The notes under the pieces are model-generated. The model worked only from the letters and a program-made list of their open reading frames with translations. It made no database searches and was not told the origin of the DNA. Positions 36,256-58,589 of a stretch of DNA of 64,000 nucleotides are shown here, in pieces. Source of the DNA: a virus. The DNA lies in IMG/VR virus record IMGVR_UViG_3300028581_002181, positions 52,457 to 116,456 of that record; one strand, given 5' to 3'. The translations under genes were made by a program, and so were the position numbers. Position 1 is the stretch's first letter. The number at the start of each line of letters is the position of its first letter.

Positions 36256-37794
36256 TCATTTATTATGAAGTTTTGATATAAATTGGTAATATTCTTCAGT
36301 TTGATTGCTGATGCCGTCCGCCCAAATTTGTTTCTTTGTGAGGTAATCATGCAATTTATTTTGTAGGTCTTTGGGAGAATTTTTGCTCCAATTATGTAAA
36401 TTATCTAACCAAACACTGGCCAACTCTGCCCACATATAATCTGGAAATATGGTCAAAAAATTGTATGAACGCGATACTGTGTTTTTTTCGGAATTATATT
36501 TTTCCTTAAGCAGTTGTTTGTGATTCAATTCAATTCCTAAATCATACATGTCTTGCCAAAATTTATTTGTTTTTTTTGAACACAATGTATAATGCACACT
36601 GATAAAGTCTGCGATGTCATCCAAAGCATAACAAACTTTTTCATTGTAATCTGCCCAATCATTGTTGTTTTTTATGGCCATAGTGGCTGCAAATATCGTT
36701 GAAACTGAAATGAACAGTGCGTTGGCTTCCATGGGCTCTATAAAACCTGCTGCCATGCCCACAGCACAAACGTTTTTTATTGCTGGAGTTTTAAATCTTT
36801 TTGGTTCCCACTTGATCAGTCTTGGTTCTTTTAAATTTTTTTTATCTATAATTTTTAAAAATTCTTCTTTGGCTTGTGCATCTGTAAAATATTTGTCATT
36901 ATAGACCAATCCACAACCCATTCTATTCAATAAACCAATTTTAAATATCCAACCCATGGAGTGCCAGATGGATTGAGTGTGATTCTTACACTCTTGGTCA
37001 GCATCTGAATATTTCAAAGGACTTACCCAAGCACTGTTGGCAGGACAATGAGTGTATGCATGATAATCATTGGTTAATTTGCTGATCAATGTTCTGTGAA
37101 ATCCTGTGGCGTCTATCCAAATATCACTGCTGATGATTGCTCCTGATTGGAGTTCAACGCTGGCTATGCCTTGTTGATCACAATTTACTTTTGTGATTGT
37201 GTCTATGATTTCTTTTACACCACTGGGTTTGGCATGTTTTTCAATCAAATAAGGAGCCAGTTTTTCCGCATCAATGTGATAAGCATAGGAAAAATTTTCA
37301 CTGCCCAAATAACATCCATTGCTATCAAAAGGAGCTTTGTTTTTGTTCATGAATGAATACAAAGGCACAAATGAATCACTGTAATTTTGTACTTTTTTGT
37401 TATTAAATAAATCTATCCATACATCTGTTGCTCGCATGTCTGTAGGACCTATGGAAACAATGTCTTCTTTAGTGATAGGTTGATTATTAAAAATTTTTTC
37501 CAAAGGCTCATTATAGTTGAAAGCAAAATATACATCTTCTTTTTCATTTATCCAATCTTTAAAACAGTTGGCATATTTAAAAATACTTTGAGTGGCCAGC
37601 ATCATGTCTTTTTCATCCACACCTATTTCATTCAAAAATCCTTTCACATGAGGTGTAACACTTTCTCCCACTCCTATGGTAGGAATATGATCACTGTGTA
37701 GTAAAATTATTTGATCTGTGGGAAAATGTTTTTTTAAAAAACACGCTGCTAGAGCTCCAGCAGTGCCTGCACCTACCACAGTAATGGTTTTCAT
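36256..37794 (-). CDS. Flavin-dependent (tryptophan halogenase-like) protein (start re-assigned to MKTITVV)
   Basis: GAGTAG, IGVGES, SIFK (catalytic Lys position), IDATG, GFIEPMEA. Confidence 0.85.
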   Translation of the reverse strand: MKTITVVGAGTAGALAACFLKKHFPTDQIILLHSDHIPTIGVGESVTPHVKGFLNEIGVDEKDMMLATQSIFKYANCFKDWINEKEDVYFAFNYNEPLEKIFNNQPITKEDIVSIGPTDMRATDVWIDLFNNKKVQNYSDSFVPLYSFMNKNKAPFDSNGCYLGSENFSYAYHIDAEKLAPYLIEKHAKPSGVKEIIDTITKVNCDQQGIASVELQSGAIISSDIWIDATGFHRTLISKLTNDYHAYTHCPANSAWVSPLKYSDADQECKNHTQSIWHSMGWIFKIGLLNRMGCGLVYNDKYFTDAQAKEEFLKIIDKKNLKEPRLIKWEPKRFKTPAIKNVCAVGMAAGFIEPMEANALFISVSTIFAATMAIKNNNDWADYNEKVCYALDDIADFISVHYTLCSKKTNKFWQDMYDLGIELNHKQLLKEKYNSEKNTVSRSYNFLTIFPDYMWAELASVWLDNLHNWSKNSPKDLQNKLHDYLTKKQIWADGISNQTEEYYQFISKLHNK

Positions 37795-37795
37795 A

Positions 37796-38440
37796 TTATT
37801 CTTTTTTGGATTCTTTGTAAAAGTATTCATCTGAATCACCAAACACCCATTTGGCATTCTGTTCACAGTGCCAATATTTGGTGCTCACTTTGAAATCTGG
37901 AGTTTTGAGTTTGCCAGGATTGGCACTGGCTTCGTGCCAGATCATTCTATTGTTGGGTTGGGCAAAGAATTGACCATTGTCCAATTGACCTATGTTGTGA
38001 CCCTTGTGTTCAGTGGGCACTTCTGATTCAGTCACATTCACAGTGTTGGGATCTGTGTGAGCACTGTCCACAGTGAACAAATAAACTCCTGACATCTTTT
38101 TACCATCTTTGAGTATCACATCCACTCTGCTGTATTGTAGGTATTGTTTCTCAATGATGGTGATGTGATAGCTGAAACCATCCCACAGTTGCAAATAATC
38201 CAAAGGCAATTGCTCTTCTGATTTGATATCTGTGCGCCAAGTGAATGCACTGATGGGCAGCTTGTCATACAGTGCACCATATTCTGGCAGATATGCTTCT
38301 ATGTAGAATGCTCTGCGTGGAATAGATTTCAGTGTGACCCAAGTGCAGGGCACAAATTCACCGTGACCTTTTTGAAAGTCATACAGATATTCTTTTTTGA
38401 TGTAGGCTTGGATGTAGGGAGTGTTCACCACGAAGTTCAT
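37796..38440 (-). CDS. Hypothetical phage protein
   Basis: 214 aa beta-rich ORF. Confidence 0.75.
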   Translation of the reverse strand: MNFVVNTPYIQAYIKKEYLYDFQKGHGEFVPCTWVTLKSIPRRAFYIEAYLPEYGALYDKLPISAFTWRTDIKSEEQLPLDYLQLWDGFSYHITIIEKQYLQYSRVDVILKDGKKMSGVYLFTVDSAHTDPNTVNVTESEVPTEHKGHNIGQLDNGQFFAQPNNRMIWHEASANPGKLKTPDFKVSTKYWHCEQNAKWVFGDSDEYFYKESKKE

Positions 38441-38476: not shown

Positions 38477-39085
38477 CTAAAATGGCTTTCCACTTTTTTG
38501 TAAAATAGAGGACTGTCCTGGGGGTGTAGTTTTTGGTGCTGCAGTAGCTGGGACTTTAGGGTCTTCAAATTCATTTGGTTTGATATTTAGAGATTTTAGC
38601 ACAGATGAGAATTGTGTGTTGAAATCTCCATGAGTGATGTTAGTCATTTTACGTAAAAAATCTTCGATGCTTGTGATTATAGTATTTTTGGCTGAGCCAT
38701 CTGATGGATTTTCCAATCTAGTTTTGATAGCTGCTGATAATTCTTTTTCAAAACCTGCGTCCTTGGGTTTACTCTGCATCATTGATCCCACAAACATATT
38801 TAGGTCGTCTTTGGTAACACCTATTTTGCTGTAATCTTTTACACCAGCGCCTTTGTTCATACTGCCCAATGCTCCACCCAACTTGCTGGCAAAACTGTCT
38901 TTGGCAGCATCTGTGTCTTTGGGAGCAGTCATAAATTTATTCACAGCAGTGTTGGCTGCACCCACAGCAGTTTTCACAGCACCACCTGCCTGTGCAAATT
39001 TATTCATCACTTTGCCCATAGTGCCTGGAGGTTTGGCTGCAGTAGGTTTGCCCAAAGATGGAGTGACCAATTCATTGATCTTCAT
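38477..39085 (-). CDS. Putative internal head protein (MKINEL leader)
   Basis: N-terminal leader shared with neighbours; Lys/Ala-rich. Confidence 0.55.
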   Translation of the reverse strand: MKINELVTPSLGKPTAAKPPGTMGKVMNKFAQAGGAVKTAVGAANTAVNKFMTAPKDTDAAKDSFASKLGGALGSMNKGAGVKDYSKIGVTKDDLNMFVGSMMQSKPKDAGFEKELSAAIKTRLENPSDGSAKNTIITSIEDFLRKMTNITHGDFNTQFSSVLKSLNIKPNEFEDPKVPATAAPKTTPPGQSSILQKSGKPF

Positions 39086-39090
39086 GGTGA

Positions 39091-39477
39091 TTACTTTTTG
39101 TCTTGGTTGAATTTTTTTTCGTTAACTTTTTTGTCTAGAATTTTGAACAACACTTCTTCGTAGGTTTCCATCTTGCCATCACTGGGCTTGACCACTTGTT
39201 GTACAGGTATACTGGTTTCCAGTTCGGCTTGATTGAATTTTTCATCGTAGTCCATATAATGATACACAGAACTGATGTAATCAGCGGCTTTGGTGATCTT
39301 TGCTTGAACCCAACCTTCCAAACCTTCTGCTTCAGACACGTTCTTTAACAGTTCATGCAGTTTGATGCTGTACTTGGCCAACTTGTAAAGATCAGCACGT
39401 GCCATCTGCACTTCGTGATCCATCTCTGCTTTGTGAGCTGCGTCTGCCAATCCTTCTTTGATATCTTTGTGTTTCAT
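39091..39477 (-). CDS. Putative internal head protein (MKHKDI leader)
   Basis: Leader motif; ATAAATA at 39483-39489. Confidence 0.55.
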   Translation of the reverse strand: MKHKDIKEGLADAAHKAEMDHEVQMARADLYKLAKYSIKLHELLKNVSEAEGLEGWVQAKITKAADYISSVYHYMDYDEKFNQAELETSIPVQQVVKPSDGKMETYEEVLFKILDKKVNEKKFNQDKK

Positions 39478-39485
39478 ATGTGTAT

Positions 39486-39686
39486 TTATCTCTTCATTGG
39501 GCCACCGAATATGCTGACGTCCTTCATGTCCAGTGCGTTATCAGTGGGTTTTTGTTTTTTGGGCTTGGCTTTGGCTGATTTGTAGGCATAAGGATTGGTC
39601 ACATGGGGGTTTGCTATGCTGGCAATGTTGCCTGCTGATGTGGATCCCACAGATGCCACTTCTCTTATGATGTCTCTAATTTTCAT
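39486..39686 (-). CDS. Small putative internal head protein (MKIRDIIRE)
   Basis: Leader motif; ATAAATA at 39702-39708. Confidence 0.6.
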   Translation of the reverse strand: MKIRDIIREVASVGSTSAGNIASIANPHVTNPYAYKSAKAKPKKQKPTDNALDMKDVSIFGGPMKR

Positions 39687-39721
39687 CGTTTGCCCTTGCT
39701 GTATTTATGTGGTGTTTGTGA

Positions 39722-39916
39722 TTATTTGCTAACTTTGGGCACAGTGATGCCCAGCTTTTTCACTGCTTTGCCGCCTTTGTACAGCCTAGCGTGTGGCACT
39801 TTTAAATTCTTTGGACCATATATGTCGCCCACTTTGAATGTGTAACTCAAGCGTGCAGGATCCAATCCATAGTGGTAGTCTGCCCATGCTTCATGCACTA
39901 TATCACGTATCTTCAT
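39722..39916 (-). CDS. Small putative internal head protein (MKIRDIVHE)
   Basis: Leader motif; basic C-terminus. Confidence 0.6.
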   Translation of the reverse strand: MKIRDIVHEAWADYHYGLDPARLSYTFKVGDIYGPKNLKVPHARLYKGGKAVKKLGITVPKVSK

Positions 39917-40257
39917 TTTTTTGTCTTCACGTTTTTAGCAGCACCACGACGTTCCGGATTGGGATCTTCACGTCTTTTTCTTGAGGCTGCTGATGCACGC
40001 CCTTTCTTGCCCAATGCATGTGCTTTGGCTTGCGGCAAACATTTGGGCTTGCCTTCTTTGCTGCTGCCTCTGGCACAATCACCTTTGATTTTGCCGTCTG
40101 GACCAAATCTCACCCACTTCTGTTTAAACCATTTTTTTAAATCTTCTTCCATCTCCTTCACGGGCACACAGTTGGGCACCATTCTGTTGCCTTTGGGTTT
40201 CATGCCGCGCTGTACATAACCTTGCCAGCACTTCTCTAAAATCTCTCGGTATTTCAT
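39913..40257 (-). CDS. Basic putative internal head protein (start re-assigned to MKYREILE)
   Basis: ATG at 40257 follows the stop of 40259..40420; strongly basic with paired Cys. Confidence 0.65.
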   Translation of the reverse strand: MKYREILEKCWQGYVQRGMKPKGNRMVPNCVPVKEMEEDLKKWFKQKWVRFGPDGKIKGDCARGSSKEGKPKCLPQAKAHALGKKGRASAASRKRREDPNPERRGAAKNVKTKK

Positions 40258-40258
40258 T

Positions 40259-40420
40259 CTATTTGCTCTTGTTGCCCCAGTTGGCTGCACCTTTTTTACG
40301 ACACTGAACCAACGCACCTGATGCATAGGCACTGGGCCAAACTTTATATCTGGATTTGACCTTGCGATAGCAGGCGTCCTGTTTTTCTTGCAGACCTTGA
40401 GTGATTTCTTTGAGCTTCAT
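40259..40420 (-). CDS. 53-aa basic protein with leader, absent from the ORF track
   Basis: Manual translation MKLKEITQGLQEKQDACYRKVKSRYKVWPSAYASGALVQCRKKGAANWGNKSK. Confidence 0.75.
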   Translation of the reverse strand: MKLKEITQGLQEKQDACYRKVKSRYKVWPSAYASGALVQCRKKGAANWGNKSK

Positions 40421-40437
40421 AATAGTGTTTTACACTA

Positions 40438-40893
40438 CTATTTATTGCGTTTACGACCTTGACGCATGTTTATCTGCCAGTGTGCCAGTTGCTTTTTGCG
40501 TGCAGATGCTGTTTTAGAACTGCGTATCCGTTTCAATTGTGTGATGGTAGCGCCTTTGGGTATGCCTGCTCGTTTGGAATCACCAGGTCTACCTGGTCCT
40601 CGGCCATCCGCAAAGTTCTCATCCACGTTGCCCAATGGACTGGCAATGGGATCACGCATTTGAGCATATCTGTTCATGTCCAACACAATTTGTGCTTTGA
40701 GACTCACATGTGGAATGTCTGTTTTGATCAGCAGTTTTAAATCTTCATCCGACAAAGATTTCAAATGTTGACGCAATGCCTGACCTTTCACAGCTGGCAA
40801 AGCCTTGTCTTTGAATGGTGTGTATTGAGTTCGTAGATCATCTATGTCAGATTGTTTAAGTTTATGCTTAAACACTATTTCACGAATCTTCAT
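40438..40893 (-). CDS. Putative internal head protein (MKIREIV)
   Basis: Leader motif; internal VDE followed by an Arg/Lys-rich module. Confidence 0.6.
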   Translation of the reverse strand: MKIREIVFKHKLKQSDIDDLRTQYTPFKDKALPAVKGQALRQHLKSLSDEDLKLLIKTDIPHVSLKAQIVLDMNRYAQMRDPIASPLGNVDENFADGRGPGRPGDSKRAGIPKGATITQLKRIRSSKTASARKKQLAHWQINMRQGRKRNK

Positions 40894-40897
40894 TGAA

Positions 40898-41629
40898 TTA
40901 CACCAGTTTTAATTTGCGAGCCTGTCTGCGGATCTCACCTGGTTTAACATCTCGGGTAGTGTTCTGTTTGGTAATAATTCCCACACCTGCTGCATCTTCC
41001 ACAGGCACTTTTTCTTTTTGTTTTTGTTTATGATTGTATTGTTCCAATGCTTGTGACACCTTGCTGAGTGGATGCTTGTTGGCTTGATACAGTATGCCAT
41101 AGCCACCTTTGCTCTGCCATTTGTCTATGTTGATGGGACGATCGTCTATTAAAATATTTTTAACACCGTTTTTGACAGCATAGGTTTCTTTCACACCAGT
41201 CACAATGATAACATCTGGCTTCACTATGTTTTTGCCAATCCATACTTTTTTGTAGTAACCACTGTTTTCTGTGTCACCTCTCAAAGGCGAAGTGAGTATG
41301 CTGTACTGCCCACCTGTGAATTTCTTGATCATCTCGATCAATGTGTCTGCACTGCTGAACTTGGGTAGATGTGCAAAAAAATCTGTGCCTGCTATTCTGT
41401 CAATCACATCTTGGCGTAGGTCTTTGGTCTTGTCAGATGTCAGTTGTTTCCAGTGATCCACACCGTACAAACGTTCTACTCCACCAAAGAAATCTGCAAT
41501 CACGCCATCCATATCCAAATACACAATGGGTTTGACATTAGATTGTTCTGTCATGTGTTTATTATACAACTGTTTGTTGTATAAATCAACAGATATTTTT
41601 TGGTTAGATAGTATTTCGGTAATCTTCAT
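40898..41629 (-). CDS. HAD-family 5'(3')-deoxyribonucleotidase-like protein with MKITEIL leader
   Basis: YLDMDGVIADF, ILTSP, K, LIDD motifs. Confidence 0.8.
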   Translation of the reverse strand: MKITEILSNQKISVDLYNKQLYNKHMTEQSNVKPIVYLDMDGVIADFFGGVERLYGVDHWKQLTSDKTKDLRQDVIDRIAGTDFFAHLPKFSSADTLIEMIKKFTGGQYSILTSPLRGDTENSGYYKKVWIGKNIVKPDVIIVTGVKETYAVKNGVKNILIDDRPINIDKWQSKGGYGILYQANKHPLSKVSQALEQYNHKQKQKEKVPVEDAAGVGIITKQNTTRDVKPGEIRRQARKLKLV

Positions 41630-41790
41630 TAGTCTTTTTCACAATTGGCACAGTGACAGCGTCTGCACACTTCAATCACCCATTCTCGTGTCTTTTTGTC
41701 GCCAATATGTTCGCTTTCTTTTCTTTTCAAAGTTTTTTTGCAATGACTATCATTGCCACAATTGATGCAATAGGGTTTTTCCTTAGCCAT
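41629..41790 (-). CDS. Small Zn-ribbon-like protein (start MAKEKPYC)
   Basis: CINC...HC...CRRCHC. Confidence 0.5.
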   Translation of the reverse strand: MAKEKPYCINCGNDSHCKKTLKRKESEHIGDKKTREWVIEVCRRCHCANCEKD

Positions 41791-41794
41791 AAAT

Positions 41795-42604
41795 TTAAGA
41801 TCTGTCTTGTTTGGGACTTTTTCTTTGTTTGAATTTTTTATCAGTGGAACACCAATATCTACCATAGCTTTCATTGGATTCAGCCTGCACATATCCTTTT
41901 TTTTCATAGTCCGGCCAAGACTTTTGTGGAATCTTAATTATTCCTTGTTTGTCGTTAGGATTAATCACCATGATCAATTCATTATCACTGTTGTAATCTT
42001 TAACAGGTTGAACAATTTTTTTTGCAATTTTATCTTTGAAACTTAAATTCTCTTTTTTGTAACCTGCGGGCATGAACTTGGCATATCTGTCTTGCATGTT
42101 TTTCACTGTGTTTAAATCTCTGCCTGAATCCAAACTCAATCTAGCCACTTCGATGTCTTGTTTGATATTCTGTATCAACTGGGCATCACCTTTTTGATTG
42201 GCCATATCCAACGCTTTGTTCATGGCTTGTATCACTGGCACATTATTATTGATAGCATTATTAATGGAACCTATGCCTGCCACACTGCCCACAATAATTC
42301 CAGCCACAGCCATTTTTTGTAACCAATCTTTTAATCCTTCGTCTAATTCTGTGCTTTCAAAATGTCGGGAGTAAGGACGACCTTTGGCAAATTCTCTACC
42401 ATAGCTGAACTCCTGTCTCTGTGCTAATTCTTTGGCTGAAAAACCTGGACGTATAACTCCTCCAGCATGTTGTTTGGCAAAATCTTCTCTGTTCTTGAAG
42501 AATGCTCGGATTTCATCTGGGGTCATCATGTCCAACTTGGCTTTGGTCTTGGCCATGCTGCTGGGCAATCTAGAACCTTCTGATATGATGTGTCTTAGCT
42601 TCAT
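41795..42604 (-). CDS. Putative internal head protein (MKLRHIISE), multi-module
   Basis: Leader motif; internal LDE; a hydrophobic helix; terminal RYWC basic module. Confidence 0.6.
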   Translation of the reverse strand: MKLRHIISEGSRLPSSMAKTKAKLDMMTPDEIRAFFKNREDFAKQHAGGVIRPGFSAKELAQRQEFSYGREFAKGRPYSRHFESTELDEGLKDWLQKMAVAGIIVGSVAGIGSINNAINNNVPVIQAMNKALDMANQKGDAQLIQNIKQDIEVARLSLDSGRDLNTVKNMQDRYAKFMPAGYKKENLSFKDKIAKKIVQPVKDYNSDNELIMVINPNDKQGIIKIPQKSWPDYEKKGYVQAESNESYGRYWCSTDKKFKQRKSPKQDRS

Positions 42605-42819
42605 TTCTTTCTTCCTCTGAATTTATTCTGCAATGACCCAGTCATGTAAGGCAGACTGAACCACAATTTGAACCAATCTGGATCGCCTGGTTTTAGGCCT
42701 AATTCTTTTTCTTTGTCCTTCAAAGCCTGTGCTGTGTGACTGATATTTTCCACAGACGGCATAGTATTGCTGTAAGTGTCTATGCCTGCCAGTTTTTTCA
42801 ATTTATCAATCTCGTTCAT
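42601..42819 (-). CDS. Small protein with LKKLAGI motif
   Basis: ATAAATA at 42824-42830. Confidence 0.65.
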   Translation of the reverse strand: MNEIDKLKKLAGIDTYSNTMPSVENISHTAQALKDKEKELGLKPGDPDWFKLWFSLPYMTGSLQNKFRGRKK

Positions 42820-42826
42820 ATGATAT

Positions 42827-43393
42827 TTATGCTGGTTGTTTTAAATTTTGACGTATTTTTTGATATATCTCTGTGGCTGTTTTTTCATCTGCAGGAATAG
42901 TGGTTAAAAAACTACGTTTAGCACCTTGCACAGCATACTCTCTAGCTCTGCTGGCACTCACACCTGCTGCGCCTTCTGCATCTGGATCTCTCATTCCAGC
43001 ATTCACTGTTCTTATGCTGTTGAATTGGTAGTCTTTGCCATTGTATTTGTTCAGTAATTCATCAAATTGTTGCACTCTGTCTGATCCCGCCACATATATG
43101 ATGTCTTGATAGCCCATGCTTTCTAATTTTTTCATTGCATCAATAATGGTCTTTACTCCAGCATCTCCCACTGTGACTGTGGGGAACATTTTTTGAGCAT
43201 ACAGTACTTTGTCCGCAAAACTGAGAGGATTTGATTTGGCATCTTGAGTGTGTGTTAAAAATAAAAAGTGATCGCCTGGTTGAGCAGAGATGGCGTCTAT
43301 TAATTTTTTATGACCAGTGGTGGGTGGATTCATTCTGCCGTAAGCAAATGCGGCAATTTTAGGCGCTGGCTGACTTATTTCTACGAGTCTCAT
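42827..43393 (-). CDS. HIGH-superfamily (cytidyltransferase-like) nucleotidyltransferase with MRLVEI leader
   Basis: YGRMNPPTTGH, VAGSDR, GVSASRAR. Confidence 0.8.
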   Translation of the reverse strand: MRLVEISQPAPKIAAFAYGRMNPPTTGHKKLIDAISAQPGDHFLFLTHTQDAKSNPLSFADKVLYAQKMFPTVTVGDAGVKTIIDAMKKLESMGYQDIIYVAGSDRVQQFDELLNKYNGKDYQFNSIRTVNAGMRDPDAEGAAGVSASRAREYAVQGAKRSFLTTIPADEKTATEIYQKIRQNLKQPA

Positions 43394-43722
43394 TGTGCAT
43401 TCTTCACTGGATGTTTGGACAGTCCTTGCACGATCTTGTTGGTGAGGGTCACTCTGTCCTCTGAATTAATGATCTTTTCTGACTTGCCGTTGATTTTAAA
43501 TTTTTCAAAGTATTCGTTGATTGCTTTATCCACACATCCACCCCAAGTTTCCATTGGATTTTTTTCCATCATTTCTTTTTGATTGTCACTGTATCGTTTG
43601 GCCACTGGAAAGAAATTTTTTCTAAAAAACTCACTGTCGTTCAGCATGTACTGATAGATATCTTCTAAAATATCATATCCAATATTATCTCTGGTTATGG
43701 CTGTGAATTCTTTGGCTTTCAT
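43390..43722 (-). CDS. Putative internal head protein (MKAKEF)
   Basis: Leader motif. Confidence 0.55.
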   Translation of the reverse strand: MKAKEFTAITRDNIGYDILEDIYQYMLNDSEFFRKNFFPVAKRYSDNQKEMMEKNPMETWGGCVDKAINEYFEKFKINGKSEKIINSEDRVTLTNKIVQGLSKHPVKNAQ

Positions 43723-43724
43723 TG

Positions 43725-43922
43725 CTATCTTTCCTGTGCTGGTTCAATTGTTGGTTGTGTCTTCAACCATGCTTGACGATCTTTTTCTGCTTCTTCTTCG
43801 GAAATATATGGATCTTTGCCATCATAGATGTCCTGTAACTTTTGTCCTATCCAATCGAACACTTCTTGATCTTCTTTGGACACAGTTTTTCTATGCGTTT
43901 TATAATCTGTGGCTTTTACCAT
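43725..43922 (-). CDS. Small hypothetical protein
   Basis: ATG at 43922 overlaps the upstream stop. Confidence 0.45.
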   Translation of the reverse strand: MVKATDYKTHRKTVSKEDQEVFDWIGQKLQDIYDGKDPYISEEEAEKDRQAWLKTQPTIEPAQER

Positions 43923-44503
43923 TTGCGACAACTCCAATATCTTGCTTTGGTTCTTGGACCTGGATTAGCACAATTGTGTCTGGCTCTAAAACTTCTGCGT
44001 CTGGCTGGATTGGATTTTTTAATCCTCATATTAGGATCACCAAAATTCACTTTTACTATGTTGCCAGTGGGTTTACGCACATACACTTTGAATTTTTTCA
44101 CATCACCTCTCATGGGTTTGCCCAAAGGCACTTTGCGTCCTCTGTATTCTGCTTCATCCAATGCATCATCTTCGTTGAACCACATCACATCATATGCACT
44201 GTGAAAGTCATCACCTTCATAGGTCTCTTCATCCAAGTTGTCGTCTGTGCTGACTTCAATATCAAATTCTTCCAAACCCATTTCTTTCAACTGTTCATTG
44301 AGGCTTTCGGCCAATTCATCAGATTCTGTTTCATCCAATGCTCTGTGCAGTTCCACACGCAGCACTTGATTGCCTTGTTCATCCTCAAATATATGATAGT
44401 TGGTCTGATCTTCAAACAGTCCTATGGCGCTTTCGCTCAATGCCACATCCACCAAGGATTCTGCATTAATATTCTTACCTATGATACTAAAAAAATGTTG
44501 CAT
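43916..44503 (-). CDS. Acidic N-terminal / basic C-terminal bipartite protein
   Basis: Asp/Glu-rich first half, then LDE followed by an Arg/Lys-rich module ending RYWSCRKW. Confidence 0.7.
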   Translation of the reverse strand: MQHFFSIIGKNINAESLVDVALSESAIGLFEDQTNYHIFEDEQGNQVLRVELHRALDETESDELAESLNEQLKEMGLEEFDIEVSTDDNLDEETYEGDDFHSAYDVMWFNEDDALDEAEYRGRKVPLGKPMRGDVKKFKVYVRKPTGNIVKVNFGDPNMRIKKSNPARRRSFRARHNCANPGPRTKARYWSCRKW

Positions 44504-44504
44504 A

Positions 44505-44867
44505 TTAGTGATTAAGTTTGATTGAATTTACAGTGCCTTCAGTGTAAACCACTTTGGCTCGCACCCACACAAAATTACCAGTAAAATTGTAGAAAAAACT
44601 GCCTGTGCTGTTCACATGCACTGCAGTGGGAGCAGTGTGCGTGGTACCAGTCACATCAAACCAGTCTGTGGCAGTGGGTGCAGTGGCCAGTGTGGCCTGC
44701 ATCAGTATGCTGCCTTCAAAACCTGACACTGTGATCTGTATGGTGTGAAAACCGTCACTGCGACCATAATATCCATCACCTTTGAATTGCTGTCCCAATA
44801 CCGTTTCCGTGGTGCTGTCATTGGGATGATCCGTGGCTGATAATATTGTTTCGCTTGCTGCTGGCAT
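44505..44867 (-). CDS. Small beta-rich virion-like protein
   Basis: Thr-rich; C-terminal FVWVRAKV; TAAATA at 44873-44878. Confidence 0.6.
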   Translation of the reverse strand: MPAASETILSATDHPNDSTTETVLGQQFKGDGYYGRSDGFHTIQITVSGFEGSILMQATLATAPTATDWFDVTGTTHTAPTAVHVNSTGSFFYNFTGNFVWVRAKVVYTEGTVNSIKLNH

Positions 44868-44887: not shown

Positions 44888-47134
44888 TTATGCTGTGTGA
44901 GTGCTCAAAGACTCCGAGGATTCCAACACTATCTTACTGTCTTTGGCATTGATGGTCACTTTGCCACCGTTTTTAAGTTTGCCAAACAACAGTTCTTTGG
45001 CCATGGGAGTTTTGATCTCTTGATCTATTAATCTCTGCATGGGTCTTGCTCCCATTTTGGGATCAAAGCCTTTGTCCACTAGATAATCTATGGCTTCATC
45101 AGTCACAGTGACTTGTATTTTTTTCTCCACTAGATATGTTTTCAAATCAGTGAGGAATTTGCCCACAATTTTTATCATGGTGGGTTTGCTTAATTTTTTA
45201 AATGTGATCACTCCATCCAACCTGTTTCTAAATTCTGGAGTAAAAAACTTCCTAAATGCTGTGTCGGAATATCCCTCATCCATGGGATCTCCAAAACCTA
45301 TGCTGCCTTTTTCTGACTGTTCTGCTCCCAAATTGGTGGTCAATATCAGTGTTAAATTTTTACAATCTGCCACTTTGCCATTGCTGCCGCTCACTGTGCC
45401 TTCATCCATGATCTGCAACAGTATTTGACTCACATCAGGATGTGCTTTTTCTATCTCATCCAACAACAACACACAGTTGGGAGATTCCTGTATTTTAGTA
45501 ATTAATAATCCGGCATTTTCTTCGTAGCCCACATAACCCGGAGGTGATCCTATCAGTTTGCTGATGCTGTGTTTTTCTTGATATTCACTCATGTCAAATC
45601 TAACCATCTTCACACCAAGATGCTTGCTCAACTGTTTGGCAGTTTCTGTTTTACCACAACCAGTCGGTCCCATGAATATGAAAGATCCTATGGGTTTGTT
45701 CTCACGTTTTAATCCTGCCTGTGCAATCAGTACCTTGTCCACAATGTTGGTGATAGCCTCATCCTGATCATACACTTCTGCTTTCATGTTCTTCTCCAAA
45801 CTGGCTAGATTGCTGGATTCTCTCTGCTGTATGGTCTCCACTGGTATGGTGATGATCTTGCTGAGTTCGTATTCTATCTCCGCAGAGTCTATGATGCGTG
45901 TGTCTTTGGGAGCAATGTTGAATCTGCTGCCTGCTAAATCTATTAGATCAATGGCCTTGTCAGGCAATTTTTTATCTGTTTGATATTTGCAACTCAGCTT
46001 CACTGCTGTTTCAATGGCAGCATCAGTGATCTGTGCGCGGTGATAATTTTCATAGTATTTCTTCAGACCTTTAAGGATGTCTATGGTCACTGCTTGTGTG
46101 GGTTCATCCACAGTGATTCTTTGGAATCTACGCATGAGAGCACGATCTTTTTCAAAGTATTTTCTGTATTCTTCCCAAGTGGTACTGGCCACCACTTTTA
46201 GTGTGCCTTTGGTCAGCACTGGTTTTAATAGATTGGCCAAGTCATTGGATCCTTTGTCTCCACCACCTGCTCCTGCTCCACTGATGTTGTGTGCTTCATC
46301 TATGAACACAATGGTTTTGCCTTTTTTCTTCAAGGCTTGTAGTACCATTTTGAATCGCTCTTCAAAGTCTCCTCTGTATTTGCTGCCCGCCAACATGGCA
46401 CCTATGTCCAAGTTGTACACTTGATATTCTTTTAAAAATTCTGGCACTTTGTTGGTCACAATGTTCAATGCCAATCCTTCTGCTATGGCAGTTTTACCCA
46501 CTCCTGGGTCACCCACTAGGATCACATTGTTCTTCATTCTTCTTCCCAAAGCCAATGCAATTTGATCCAACTCAGCGTGACGACCTATCACTGGATCTAT
46601 CTTGTCTTTTTTAGCTTCAGCATTTAAATTAGTGGTGTAAAGATTCAATGCTCTCTGTGTGACCGATGCATTTTCTTCCACTCCAAAGTCTGTTTCCATC
46701 TCAGAGTTTAAAAAATCAGCAAATTTTTCCTTGTCAATGTTGGCTTTGGCCACAAAGAAATAACTGTGACTTTTCTTTTCACTCATCATGCTCAAAAACA
46801 CATCAGTCAATTCTATCTGTTGACGACCACTGAACAGTGTCTGTGTGAATGCTCTATTGAGTACTCTTTCCACACTCACAGTCTTTTTGGGTTTGTATTT
46901 GGCAGGAGGGCTCACCAACTCTATCTCTTTGAGTCTTTCTTTGAGATATGTTTCAAGATTTTTCTTCAATGTTTCTGCGTCGGCTCCGAAATCTGTGATG
47001 GTCTTGATGAATTTGTCATAGCACAGCATGGCAAACAGCAGGTGTTCCACTGTGACATATTCATGTTTGAGCTTGGCAGCGTCTTCCACTGCTTTGTCAA
47101 ATATTCTCTGTAGTTCGTCGCTGGGTTCTACCAT
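44888..47134 (-). CDS. clpA: ClpA-like Hsp100 ATPase
   Basis: Clp N-domain ([10 protein letters not shown]), [24 protein letters not shown], and the IGF ClpP-docking loop. Confidence 0.92.
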
Positions 47135-47135
47135 A

Positions 47136-47630
47136 TTAATTCAATAATTTTTGTTGTTTCTTACGGGCTATCTCCAGTTTCACTTTGCTGACTCTGTCGA
47201 TAAAGTTGATTCCATACAAATGATCAAATTCATGTAAAAAAATTCTAGCATCCATTTCAGTTAATTTAATTATACATTCTTTCTGTTCACTGTCAAGATA
47301 TTTAACCACTATGGTGTGAGGCCTACTGATTTTAAGATACAGTTTTGGAAAACTGAGGCAGCCTTCCTCCAGCAAAACTAAATCCGTGGTGGCTTCCTGT
47401 ATGATTGGATTGATCACAGCAAATGGCTTGGTTTTGCCTTGGATATTCTGAGGTTGCATCACAAATATTTTGGCATCTAATTCCACTTGATTGGCTGCCA
47501 GTCCTATGCCTTTTTCCACAATCATGGTGTGAATCATGTCCTGTTCGATTTTAACAGCATCCATATTACTGAAATCGAAATCTTTCACTGTGCGATCCAA
47601 CCATGGGTTGGGGTGTTTAATCAAGTTCAT
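47136..47630 (-). CDS. def: Peptide deformylase
   Basis: GIGLAANQ, EGCLS, HEFDH. Confidence 0.95.
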   Translation of the reverse strand: MNLIKHPNPWLDRTVKDFDFSNMDAVKIEQDMIHTMIVEKGIGLAANQVELDAKIFVMQPQNIQGKTKPFAVINPIIQEATTDLVLLEEGCLSFPKLYLKISRPHTIVVKYLDSEQKECIIKLTEMDARIFLHEFDHLYGINFIDRVSKVKLEIARKKQQKLLN

Positions 47631-48468
47631 CTCGTAAATTTTTTATTTTTTGCAATAGTGCAGCATCTTCCACTCTGGGAGTGTCTGACACCACAGTGAT
47701 GTATAGATTACCGCGCTGACGAGCATTGTGTACATGAGGTAAACCTTCACCAGTGATATTGAACACAGTGCCGTGCTGTGTGCCTTTGGGTATGCTGACT
47801 GAAAGATTTTTGCCTGACAGAGTGCGTATTTCTTTCTTAGTGCCCAAGATTAGATCAAACACATTCACCTTAATTTTGCTGTGCAAATGTATGCCATCTC
47901 GTTCCCAGGTTTTGTGTCTTAAAATCTTAATTCTCACAATGAGATCACCGCGTGGAGCATTGCTGATAGAGTCACTGCCTAATCCAGCAAATCTGATCAT
48001 GTTGTTGTGTTCCACTCCAGGCGGAATATCTATGTTCACACTTTCCTGTCGACCATTGGGTAATCTGTAGCTGGCAATGAGAGATTTGCCATTATGAACA
48101 TCTTCCAACTCCAGTGTGGCTTCTATATTGATGTCCTGATTGCGAGGATTGGATCTGAATGTGCTGGCTCTTTGAAATGGTCCTCCACCACCTCCAAAGA
48201 AATTGTTGAATATGTCATTGATGTCACCATTAAAATTATAAGTGAAATTGTCACCCCCTTGACGATGCATGTCGGTGGTGCCATATCTATCATAGGCAGC
48301 CTTTTTTTGAGGATCTTTCAGTATGTCGTATGCTTCGTTTAATTCTTTGAATTTGTTTTCATCACCACCTCTGTCAGGATGATGTTTCATGGCCTTGCTC
48401 TTGTAGGCTTTTTTCAAATCGTTTTCATTGGTATTGCGATCAACACCTAAAACTTTGTAAGGATCCAT
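47617..48468 (-). CDS. dnaJ: DnaJ/CbpA-type co-chaperone without Zn finger
   Basis: J-domain with HPD, G/F linker, C-terminal DnaJ domain. Confidence 0.92.
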   Translation of the reverse strand: MDPYKVLGVDRNTNENDLKKAYKSKAMKHHPDRGGDENKFKELNEAYDILKDPQKKAAYDRYGTTDMHRQGGDNFTYNFNGDINDIFNNFFGGGGGPFQRASTFRSNPRNQDINIEATLELEDVHNGKSLIASYRLPNGRQESVNIDIPPGVEHNNMIRFAGLGSDSISNAPRGDLIVRIKILRHKTWERDGIHLHSKIKVNVFDLILGTKKEIRTLSGKNLSVSIPKGTQHGTVFNITGEGLPHVHNARQRGNLYITVVSDTPRVEDAALLQKIKNLRDELD

Positions 48469-52109: not shown

Positions 52110-53027
52110 TTATTCCATATGAGAAAGTTTGATCATGGTGGCTGAAAGATTAATTTCAGGATCAGAGATCAATGTATGATCCACCAGACCTTGTTTGATG
52201 ATTTGAATGGCTTTTTCTTGACGTGCTTCATTTCCAAACAGTGTGATATTATTATACATCCATTTAAAAATATCTTCCACTTCATCAGGTCTCACTTGAC
52301 TGCACACCAATTTCCTTGCTTCAGTGATCTTGCCCGCTTTGAACAACTCAACCATTTGTAACTTGTAATCTGATTCGCCCATGTCACTCTTTTCAGGCTT
52401 CAGCAACACGCCATTCTGTGCATTCATTTGCACCATGTTGATGCACTTTCTAAGATCTGGATATGTGGCTTTGACATAAGTGTCCAATGTTTCTAAATCT
52501 GGAGTTATGCCTTCTTGCATTAATATTTCAGCCACTCTGGCTGTGAATTCTGTTTGATCCACACGTTCAATGTGGAATCCTTGACATCTGCTGTGCAGTG
52601 CTGGGATCACTCTGTTGGGATAGTTGCAGGTCAGTATGAATCTTGATGTGGTATGATATTCTTCCATTACCCCACGCAGTGCTGCCTGTGCATTGGGTGA
52701 TAGATAGTCTGCCTCATCCAACAGCACCACTTTGAAATCACCAAATGGAATCATCTGTACAAAATTAACAATTTTGGCTCTCACATCATCCACAGAGTTG
52801 GTTCTGCTGGCATTGATTTCCAACACATCTAAATCATTCACTTGCAATTCATTCAGCAGTATTTTGGCCAATGTGGTTTTGCCTATGCCAGCATTGCCGC
52901 TGAACAACAAATGAGGAATGCTTTTGTCTTTTACCCAAGTTTGGATCTGTTTTTTTTGATGTTCATCTCTAAACACATATTGATCCAGTGTGCGAGGTCT
53001 ATACTTTTCTGTCCAAAGTTCTTTCAT
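52110..53027 (-). CDS. Clamp loader ATPase subunit (gp44/RFC-like)
   Basis: WTEKYRP, GNAGIGKT, INAS, LLDEAD, TCN, HSRC. Confidence 0.92.
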   Translation of the reverse strand: MKELWTEKYRPRTLDQYVFRDEHQKKQIQTWVKDKSIPHLLFSGNAGIGKTTLAKILLNELQVNDLDVLEINASRTNSVDDVRAKIVNFVQMIPFGDFKVVLLDEADYLSPNAQAALRGVMEEYHTTSRFILTCNYPNRVIPALHSRCQGFHIERVDQTEFTARVAEILMQEGITPDLETLDTYVKATYPDLRKCINMVQMNAQNGVLLKPEKSDMGESDYKLQMVELFKAGKITEARKLVCSQVRPDEVEDIFKWMYNNITLFGNEARQEKAIQIIKQGLVDHTLISDPEINLSATMIKLSHME

Positions 53028-58572: not shown

Positions 58573-58589
58573 AACTGTATTTATCTGTG

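Follow-up and report, generated by a model that had tools for sequence, protein, structure and literature searches.

We analyzed a window of 64,000 nucleotides, the last 64 kb of a 116,456-bp virus contig from IMG/VR (record IMGVR_UViG_3300028581_002181, positions 52,457 to 116,456; CheckV completeness 32%). Eleven of 13 consecutive genes on the minus strand of this window, at positions 38477-43722, begin with the same short pattern, M-K/R-x-x-E/D/H-I/L/F, although the encoded proteins are otherwise unrelated. We regard this leader as a nine-residue, clade-specific form of the capsid-targeting sequence (CTS) of bacteriophage T4, which would direct proteins to the prohead and be processed there. 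We put the probability of this reading, together with the five-step mechanism set out below, at about 0.7.

The phage is most likely a jumbo T4-like myovirus without a cultured close relative. This is suggested by the T4-like gene content of the contig, which includes baseplate and tail-fiber genes and a replication module, and by the existence of a syntenic relative with a complete genome of 357,559 bp, designated G001 here.

A leader shared by unrelated genes

The tagged genes are numbered from 1 to 11 in the order of increasing coordinates. The leader has the consensus M1-K/R2-I/L3-x4-E/D5-I/L/F6-x7-x8, and about half of the leaders have a Glu at position 8 or 9. A sequence-only reading of the window had listed eleven such N-termini, and a check of open reading frames (ORFs) found all of them on the minus strand. 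The same reading claimed that genes outside the block rarely start in this way and proposed to compare N-termini genome-wide. Using a simple ORF call over the whole 116-kb contig and the pattern M-[KR]-x-x-[EDH]-[ILFVM], we found the motif at 11 of 13 gene starts in the array and at none of about 120 other ORF starts. When Ile or Leu is not demanded at position 3, this loose pattern also appears at about 1% of ordinary gene starts (7 of 696 in cyanophage-type contigs). With this background rate, the probability of at least 11 matches among 13 genes is about 8e-21, and a chance origin of the run was rejected (P ~1e-20). Paralogy was rejected as well, since the tagged families are unrelated outside the tag. 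BLAST divides the eleven genes into at least 10 separate families, and their similarity is limited to 6-9 residues.

The hexapeptide MKIRDI is encoded as ATG AAA ATT AGA GAC ATC in one gene and as ATG AAG ATA CGT GAT ATA in the next one. Codons for Ile, Arg, Lys, Glu, Asp, and Leu are all used freely across the eleven leaders, and synonymous variation is seen at every leader position. A repeat search returned only matches of 22-34 nt ending at the ATG; the upstream DNA shows no conservation, and the intergenic spacers in the array are 0-35 nt long. Because codons vary synonymously and no DNA repeat extends past the coding leader, selection acts on the peptide and not on the DNA. Two candidate explanations at the DNA level were tried and rejected: a PeSL-type promoter/stem-loop cassette, because there is no repeat beyond the coding leader, and a codon-level initiation signal, because of the synonymous variation.

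Structural models show the leader as a disordered extension that precedes bodies unrelated to one another. AlphaFold2 (AF2) leaves the first 8-11 residues of the 188-aa and 110-aa proteins without structure and places them outside the fold. The 188-aa protein (gene 10, 42827-43393, minus strand, MRLVEI start, MRLVEISQPAPK...) is an HxGH-class nucleotidyltransferase of the PPAT/NMNAT-like kind, matching the cytidyltransferase family phrog_3041 with an E-value of 6e-48. Its AF2 model has a predicted local distance difference test score (pLDDT) of 85, with residues 1-11 unstructured, and its best fold matches in the PDB are PPAT and NaMN adenylyltransferases. The fold was identified only via the AF2 model; a sequence-profile search of the PDB with this family was empty. 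In cyanophage-type contigs, the first strand opens the stand-alone homologues of gene 10 (M-x-AVFTFGRMNPPT), and the leader and linker of gene 10 are thus a 12-residue add-on (MRLVEISQPAPK). The leader is present in 27 of 29 members of the nucleotidyltransferase family.

The 110-aa helical protein (gene 11, 43390-43722, minus strand, MKAKEFTAI...) belongs to a family whose gene invariably opens the tagged row in relatives and which carries the leader in 31 of 33 loci. Within this family E5 is nearly invariant and the bodies are 21-30% identical, with a linker of variable length between the leader and the body. The AF2 model has an overall pLDDT of 79, with values below 50 for residues 1-8; a PDB fold search with this helical model gave no match.

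To collect relatives, the nucleotidyltransferase was used as a probe, and 79 viral loci were fetched. The 36 closest loci (L003-L038, 50-93% identity to the probe, 757 genes) are referred to as the 9-mer clade. More distant cyanophage-type loci from the same search (696 genes) served as a comparison set. The nine-residue leader occurs on 209 of the 757 genes of the 9-mer clade. A logo of 99 non-redundant leaders reads M, K/R, I/L, R/K/N, E/D, I/L/F, x, followed by a Glu at position 8 (38/99) or 9 (18/99). About 44 sequence families are tagged in these 36 loci, and tagging is nearly all-or-none within a family. The hydrophobic/acidic pattern of the leader is kept over deep divergence. A core set is formed by the 110-aa protein, the nucleotidyltransferase, a 128-aa protein, a protein with a TSAGN motif (tagged in 16 of 16 loci), and a 5'(3')-deoxyribonucleotidase of the NT5C type (14 of 14). 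Around this core there is an accessory shell of families found in one to six loci each, for example, a pterin-4a-carbinolamine dehydratase and a 612-aa protein with a peptidoglycan-binding domain.

The tagged proteins are also alike in charge. The isoelectric point (pI) is 9.2-10.6 in nine of the eleven. The other ORFs have a median of 6.4, compared with 9.6 for the tagged proteins (P = 2e-4). High basicity is also a property of the T4 internal proteins (PMC8442874).

Late-promoter cores had been reported in the block at 39483, 39702, and 42824, and these are real: the coding strand (minus) carries ATAAATA at 39483-39489 (5 nt before gene 2), 39702-39708 (15 nt before gene 3), and 42824-42830 (4 nt before a 72-aa gene of the array). 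A fourth core in the array lies at 40439-40445, 18 nt before gene 6. The whole contig holds 21 copies of ATAAATA, fewer than the approximately 50 expected, and 19 of the 21 are located 4-34 nt before a gene start. This rarity and placement identify ATAAATA as the late-promoter core. The genes behind its copies on the contig are mostly tail and baseplate genes, and the promoter layout predicts that the array is expressed late, with the structural genes. The core is often only 4-6 nt away from the ATG (e.g., at 42824-42830, 39483-39489, and 58578-58584), and there is no evident Shine-Dalgarno sequence. Given such distances, many late mRNAs may have no or almost no 5' leader.

Relation to the T4 capsid-targeting sequence

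The CTS of T4 is MKTYQEFIAE (PMC8442874). Its residues 4 and 7 are responsible for targeting and residues 8 and 10 for processing by the prohead protease gp21, which cuts after L/I-x-E (PMC9026906). If one residue is dropped after Lys2, MKTYQEFIAE aligns with MKIRDIIRE, so that YQEFIAE corresponds to IRDIIRE and, in other leaders, to EIVSE or DIISE. The two systems share a short N-terminal peptide on unrelated, mostly small, basic, late proteins encoded by clustered genes. Both have a pair of hydrophobic residues three positions apart (3 and 6 here, 4 and 7 in T4), followed in part of the leaders here by hydrophobic-x-Glu, and a protease of the gp21 family is encoded by the complete relative G001. 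The downstream Glu that had been pointed out in several leaders is real: [I/L/V]-x-E lies within the first 12 residues of 10 of the 11 leaders, and at positions 8-12 in 6 of the 11.

There are also differences. The leader here has nine residues, one fewer than in T4, with Ile or Leu in place of the Tyr and Phe, and the 10-residue consensus of the MKTYQEFIAE type with aromatic residues 4 and 7 is found on none of the 757 genes in the 36 loci. Thus the leader is a variant and not the T4 form itself. The terminal Glu is present in only about half of the leaders. Eleven tagged genes stand in one row, compared to three in T4, and the row is known from sequence alone. Enzymes are among the cargo, much of which is conserved in the clade and not hypervariable. 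The leader copies differ synonymously, whereas the T4 genome holds two CTS copies that are identical over 30 nt.

A 10-residue form, MKx[F/Y]xx[F/Y/H][I/L/M]xE, does occur in the comparison set. It was found on 40 of 696 genes in the cyanophage-type loci (e.g., MKSFVEHIAE, MKKFRTYIAE, and MKSYNQYLAE) and on none of the 757 genes of the 9-mer clade. Melnitz, a cultured phage of Methylophilales, has MKKFSEIIEA on a 650-aa nucleotidyltransferase fusion and MKKFSELTSE on an adjoining gene. In the cyanophages S-RIM8 and S-SCSM1 a small protein encoded between terS and terL starts with MKSYNEFISE and MKTFKQFMSE, respectively. The 9-mer and 10-mer forms never mix within a genome, as expected if the tag must fit the scaffold and protease of its own clade.

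A homologue of gp21 (Peptidase_S77) is encoded in the complete genome of G001, and also in G002, Melnitz, and S-SCSM1. In G001, the protease itself (111645-112268) starts with MINLRENL, and a small gene after the portal gene, in the position of T4 gp67/68, starts with MILRELFYFD. The capsid protein of G001 contains ...RRYLAE/SATAGATSAGNVATLNRVILPVIRR, in which an L-x-E site directly precedes a conserved N-arm (YLAE/SATAGATSAGN). This N-arm aligns with the region past the FLTE65/A site of T4 gp23.

The post-tag part of the 66-aa protein (gene 3, 39486-39686, minus strand, MKIRDIIRE/VASVGSTSAGNIA...) copies this very region of the capsid protein. In a BLASTP comparison with the G001 capsid protein, RDIIRE/VASVGSTSAGNIASI of gene 3 aligns against RRYLAE/SATAGATSAGNVATL. 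The small tagged copy encoded by G001 itself, MRLRELIE/TASAGATSAGSVA, shares 13 of 18 residues with the G001 capsid region. The family occurs in 16 loci and has the tag in every one. Since it copies the post-site region, the terminal Glu of the leader sits at the presumed cleavage Glu of the capsid protein. Proteins of this family may act on the protease, or on the binding site of the capsid N-arm, as a decoy or competitor. The family (57-90 aa) has a three-part organization: the leader, the N-arm copy A-[ST]-AGATSAGN-[IV]-A, and a C-terminal part NALDM..VS.FGG..KR (window 39486-39686, minus strand; G001:C1:223235-223408 and 109350-110525).

Homologues of four array genes point to the virion. 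S-SCSM1 ORF91 is homologous to gene 10, and its N-terminus (MKSFLQFLKEAAES) carries a T4-type tag, MKSFLQFLKE. Genes 2, 5, and 6 encode mini-domains that are fused into one polyprotein in cyanophages, namely S-RIM8 gp114 (591 aa) and S-SCSM1 ORF29 (517 aa). The polyprotein gene lies between the terminase genes, beside genes of virion proteins, in the packaging/structural region. ORF29 and ORF91, the latter an NMNAT, were detected by mass spectrometry in CsCl-purified virions of S-SCSM1 (PMC9602691). According to the same authors, NMNAT-like proteins appear repeatedly in cyanophage virions (PMC9602691). This recurrence would be explained by the T4-type targeting leader of ORF91.

The modules correspond as follows. 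Gene 2 (39091-39477, minus strand, 128 aa, MKHKDIKE/GLADAAHKAEMDHEV...) is a conserved module that is also found inside S-RIM8 gp114. Gene 5 (39913-40257, minus strand, 114 aa, MKYREILE/KCW...) consists of two basic mini-domains. Gene 6 (40259-40420, minus strand, 53 aa, MKLKEI start, MKLKEITQGLQE/KQDACY...) is a DUF5872-type Cys mini-domain that matches phrog_727 (3e-22) and aligns to residues 431-471 of S-RIM8 gp114 and to S-SCSM1 ORF29. The linkers of the polyprotein have the form hydrophobic-x-Glu (...FQQFQE/KCW, ...SELFNE/DCW, and ...EQFDE/AAGEKDACY) and occupy the positions of the window leaders MKYREILE/KCW of gene 5 and MKLKEITQGLQE/KQDACY of gene 6. Cyanophages thus have a 10-mer on few genes and mini-domains fused into proteins of 517-591 aa, while here each module is a separate gene with a 9-mer of its own and the order of modules is shuffled.

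The polyprotein (S-RIM8 NC_020486, 92330-94105; S-SCSM1, 42662-44215) is itself a mosaic of small basic Cys modules, including DUF5872, a DUF6321-like C-terminus, and others; podoviruses, pelagiphages, and an algal giant virus have these modules too. In S-RIM8 gp114, an internal TYNEIFGE/A upstream of the first module resembles the T4 CTS. Because of this, the annotated start of gp114 may be wrong.

Propeptides of T4 head proteins are written in the same style as the leaders: gp24 starts with MAKINELLRE and gp22 with MLKEQLIAE. Apart from one extra residue, the start of gp24 is nearly the MKINEL/MKINEILAE leader seen here, and gp24 loses its first 10 residues. The difference is that gp24, gp22, and gp21 are shell, vertex, and scaffold parts and not a row of unrelated cargo. 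In giant phages of the phiKZ type (phiKZ, 201phi2-1, and SPN3US) head ejection and inner-body proteins are processed at S/A-x-E by a diverged gp21 homologue (PMC9026906, PMC7411985). These phages likewise have jumbo genomes, and many of their head-internal proteins have propeptides removed after Glu by a T4-type prohead protease, but the propeptides are long and share no short tag, and the phages are unrelated to the T4-like clade studied here. Polyvalent proteins, MuF-fused effectors, and the Dar system of P1 also pack several effector or enzyme domains in the head for delivery with DNA (PMC5512222, PMC12810830). However, their carrier is a giant fusion or adaptor protein and not a short cleavable N-terminal tag. 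The CTS on unrelated internal proteins of T-even phages has been known since the 1990s, along with polymorphic ip loci and at least 10 ip genes (PMC12373910, PMC9026906). In the searchable literature we found no description of a CTS in cyanophages, Melnitz-type phages, the jumbo clade, or other marine T4-like phages beyond incidental mention. New here are the nine-residue variant, which excludes the 10-mer clade by clade, an unusually long tagged row with enzyme cargo, the relation between separate genes and a polyprotein, and a small protein that mimics the capsid cleavage region.

Proposed function and alternative explanations

The proposed mechanism has five steps. The array would be transcribed late from the ATAAATA promoters along with the structural genes. 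During prohead assembly the short amphipathic leader would dock the protein on the scaffolding core, and a gp21-type prohead protease would then cut after the Glu of the hydrophobic-x-Glu site. The mature proteins, mostly basic, would remain in the head beside the DNA. Some of these, at least, would exit with the DNA at infection, by analogy with T4 internal proteins and Alt. The cargo would consist of a conserved core (the PPAT/NMNAT-like nucleotidyltransferase, the NT5C nucleotidase, three further proteins, and the capsid N-arm mimic) and of accessory members that vary between relatives.

The sequence-only reading had proposed both a T4-style leader cleaved after Glu and a whole locus of injected cargo likely to contain anti-defense or host-takeover factors. 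The first proposal, a leader with a Glu site on unrelated late proteins, is strengthened by the alignment with the CTS, the non-mixing of the two forms, the gp21 homologue and capsid match in a relative, and the cyanophage virion homologues. From the second one the present picture differs in two points: the 110-aa protein, the nucleotidyltransferase, NT5C, the 128-aa protein, and the capsid mimic, which make up about half of the array, are conserved in the clade, and several members are mini-domains of a polyprotein. Owing to this conservation, that half resembles the core equipment of the head or of the start of infection more than a fast-changing arsenal. The internal proteins Ip1-3 inhibit GmrSD enzymes. 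Searches of Pfam, PHROG, and the protein atlas revealed no recognizable anti-defense domain in any cargo protein of the array.

Several points weigh against the proposed mechanism. Cleavage may not be general, since a Glu occurs only at position 5 in five of the 11 leaders and a hydrophobic-x-Glu site is missing altogether from that of gene 11. A search for Peptidase_S77 on the contig, which is 32% complete and lacks the head module, was negative, and the capsid gene is also off the contig. As a consequence, the head machinery is deduced from G001, whose nucleotidyltransferase is only 54% identical. The cut position in the G001 capsid protein is a presumed one, not matched exactly to Glu65 of T4. 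The ip loci of T-even phages are hypervariable, whereas a large share of this array is kept throughout the clade. Cultured phages were searched and yielded no member of the 9-mer clade. The gene starts used for the relatives are those of a simple longest-ATG ORF call. Finally, the small tagged protein ORF30 of S-SCSM1 (106 aa) is not among the listed virion proteins, which is neutral to mildly negative.

In the main alternative explanation, the tagged proteins would be targeted to the prohead as assembly factors, scaffold or core helpers (like gp22, gp67, and gp68 of T4), or maturation regulators or as structural filler, to be degraded, expelled, or kept, and not as delivered effectors. The conservation of about half of the array fits this, as do the similar N-termini of T4 scaffold and vertex proteins and of the G001 protease (MINLRENL) and gp67/68-position protein (MILRELF). 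The 66-aa protein, which copies the capsid cleavage region, suggests an assembly or protease-timing role. We nevertheless consider such an explanation unlikely. Two of the members, the nucleotidyltransferase and NT5C, are enzymes with no obvious use inside the head. Moreover, the homologous NMNAT and polyprotein are present in mature purified cyanophage virions (PMC9602691), and in their basic charge the tagged proteins resemble the retained internal proteins of T4 and differ from scaffolds, which are acidic.

The neighborhood of the array allows another interpretation, in which the leader is a tag for the phage ClpA-like unfoldase, ClpP, or DnaJ and serves timed degradation, remodeling, or another cell location. 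In every relative of the 9-mer clade the array lies directly downstream of a block of DnaJ, deformylase, and ClpA-like genes, and G001 encodes ClpP; besides, ClpA is generally known to read N-terminal signals. This link is confounded by shared descent, and no ClpA-like gene occurs in the examined stretches beside the 10-mer-tagged genes of cyanophages and Melnitz. With the 10-mer-tagged NMNAT found in S-SCSM1 virions, and with a tag that can be matched to the T4 CTS residue by residue and has the protease's hydrophobic-x-Glu motif at its end, a Clp-related tag appears quite improbable. The pattern could also belong to the nucleic acid, either as an enhancer of translation initiation on mRNAs without a Shine-Dalgarno sequence or 5' leader or as a PeSL-like recombination cassette. 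There is no clear Shine-Dalgarno sequence before the genes, some cores are only 4-5 nt from the ATG, and a Lys codon after the ATG is common in well-expressed genes. PeSL cassettes are known in hyperplastic regions of T4-type phages (PMC2839356, PMC4122927). We find a nucleic-acid feature hardly credible, as the codons vary synonymously at each leader position while the amino-acid pattern is constant and kept over deep divergence, the upstream DNA has no repeat, and late tail and baseplate genes with the same promoter layout lack the motif.

If the tag is a CTS variant that works as proposed, head-carried proteins of abundant uncultured giant T4-like phages can be listed from sequence. The approximately 44 tagged families on 36 contigs would then be a route to candidate early-acting enzymes and counter-defense factors. 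The address label would have changed from 10 to 9 residues in step with the head machinery, and the same mini-domains could be delivered as one polyprotein or as separately tagged genes. The 9-mer is also a candidate tag for loading foreign proteins into heads of T4-like phages of hosts other than E. coli.

A wider joint reading is offered tentatively, and as a whole it is rather doubtful. According to it, the leader serves T4-like phages of the whole marine and freshwater radiation as an address label, a 10-mer in cyanophages and Melnitz and a 9-mer in the uncultured jumbo clade, and the packaged proteome, a kit pre-loaded for the start of infection, is predictable from DNA. The nucleotidyltransferase and NT5C might act on host nucleotide and NAD pools at the moment of DNA entry, for example, against NAD-depleting defenses. 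The capsid N-arm decoy might tune maturation by the protease, and the variable members might be counter-defense proteins suited to a phage with 7-deazaguanine DNA. Were this reading true, the presence of NMNAT in cyanophage virions would be accounted for.

Other genes of the array and its surroundings

The remaining tagged genes, all on the minus strand, are mostly basic. Gene 1 (38477-39085) encodes a basic Ala/Gly/Lys-rich protein of 202 aa, MKINELVTP..., and a similar A/G/K-rich tagged protein (MKISDITNE...) is found near the head genes of G001. Gene 4 (39722-39916) encodes a basic protein of 64 aa, MKIRDIVHE/AWADYHYG.... Gene 7 (40438-40893) encodes a very basic protein of 151 aa, MKIREIVFK..., with a pI of 10.6. 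Gene 8 (40898-41629, 243 aa, MKITEILSN...) is the 5'(3')-deoxyribonucleotidase of the NT5C/HAD type, with matches to Pfam NT5C (3.4e-5) and phrog_2643 (4.8e-24); its family is tagged in 14 of 14 cases, and NT5C recurs on other tagged proteins in relatives. Gene 9 (41795-42604) encodes a basic, poorly ordered protein of 269 aa, MKLRHIISE/GSR..., with the leader in 10 of 10 family members and an atlas model with a pLDDT of 0.52. For gene 9, a tblastn search against cultured phages was empty, and Pfam and PHROG gave no match. The protein atlas contained nothing usable for the 269-aa and 151-aa proteins (genes 9 and 7). Overall, Pfam and PHROG have no match for 6 of the 11 cargo proteins.

Genes of the array are packed end to end. 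A longer ORF, 39913-40332, contains the MKYREI start of gene 5 as an internal ATG (40257), which is 1 nt past the stop of the preceding gene.

Two genes of the row have no canonical tag. One encodes the 72-aa protein (MNEIDKLKKLAG; 42601-42819, minus strand) and has its own late-promoter core; its relatives start with M-x-x-S-I-D-E-L-K-K-L-A-G, which contains an offset leader-like I-x-E-L. The other one is a small Cys-rich ORF (MAKEKPYCINCG...; 41629-41790, minus strand). Its longer 92-aa reading (41629-41907) overlaps the 3' end of the 269-aa gene (41795-42604) by 113 nt. The true start is probably the internal ATG at 41790, because relatives have only the 53-aa version (M-I/V-KEKPYC...).

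The array is preceded in every relative by two untagged genes (43916-44867, minus strand) encoding proteins of 195 aa and 120 aa with matches to phrog_14467 and phrog_13657. Of these, the 120-aa protein has its match in a PHROG of virion structural proteins, and its gene is in synteny with the one before the cyanophage polyprotein. The gene order common to all 36 loci is DnaJ, peptide deformylase, ClpA-like ATPase, the 120-aa protein, the 195-aa protein, and the tagged array. In the window, the upstream block (44888-48468, minus strand) encodes a DnaJ-like protein of 283 aa, a peptide deformylase of 164 aa, and a full-length ClpA/ClpB-like double AAA+ ATPase of 748 aa. The ClpP gene of G001 is located at G001:C1:295480-296025. 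Directly downstream of the array there are a gene for a 214-aa protein (37796-38440, minus strand; phrog_3704, annotated as ferredoxin, 2e-88), which closes the array in relatives also, and a 536-aa ORF similar to flavin-dependent halogenases (36256-37866, minus strand).

Some scattered matches to the leader pattern in G001 are probably due to chance, because the loose pattern catches about 1% of ordinary genes. A second leader-bearing cluster is located in G001 far from the syntenic array, at G001:C1:348591-352913 and 356759-356983. It includes a 364-aa protein (MRFQEFKTLLTE...) with HLEDL and KWDG motifs. The family of this protein has an annotated virion protein in S-SCSM1 (ORF90) and a member that adjoins the tagged genes in Melnitz.

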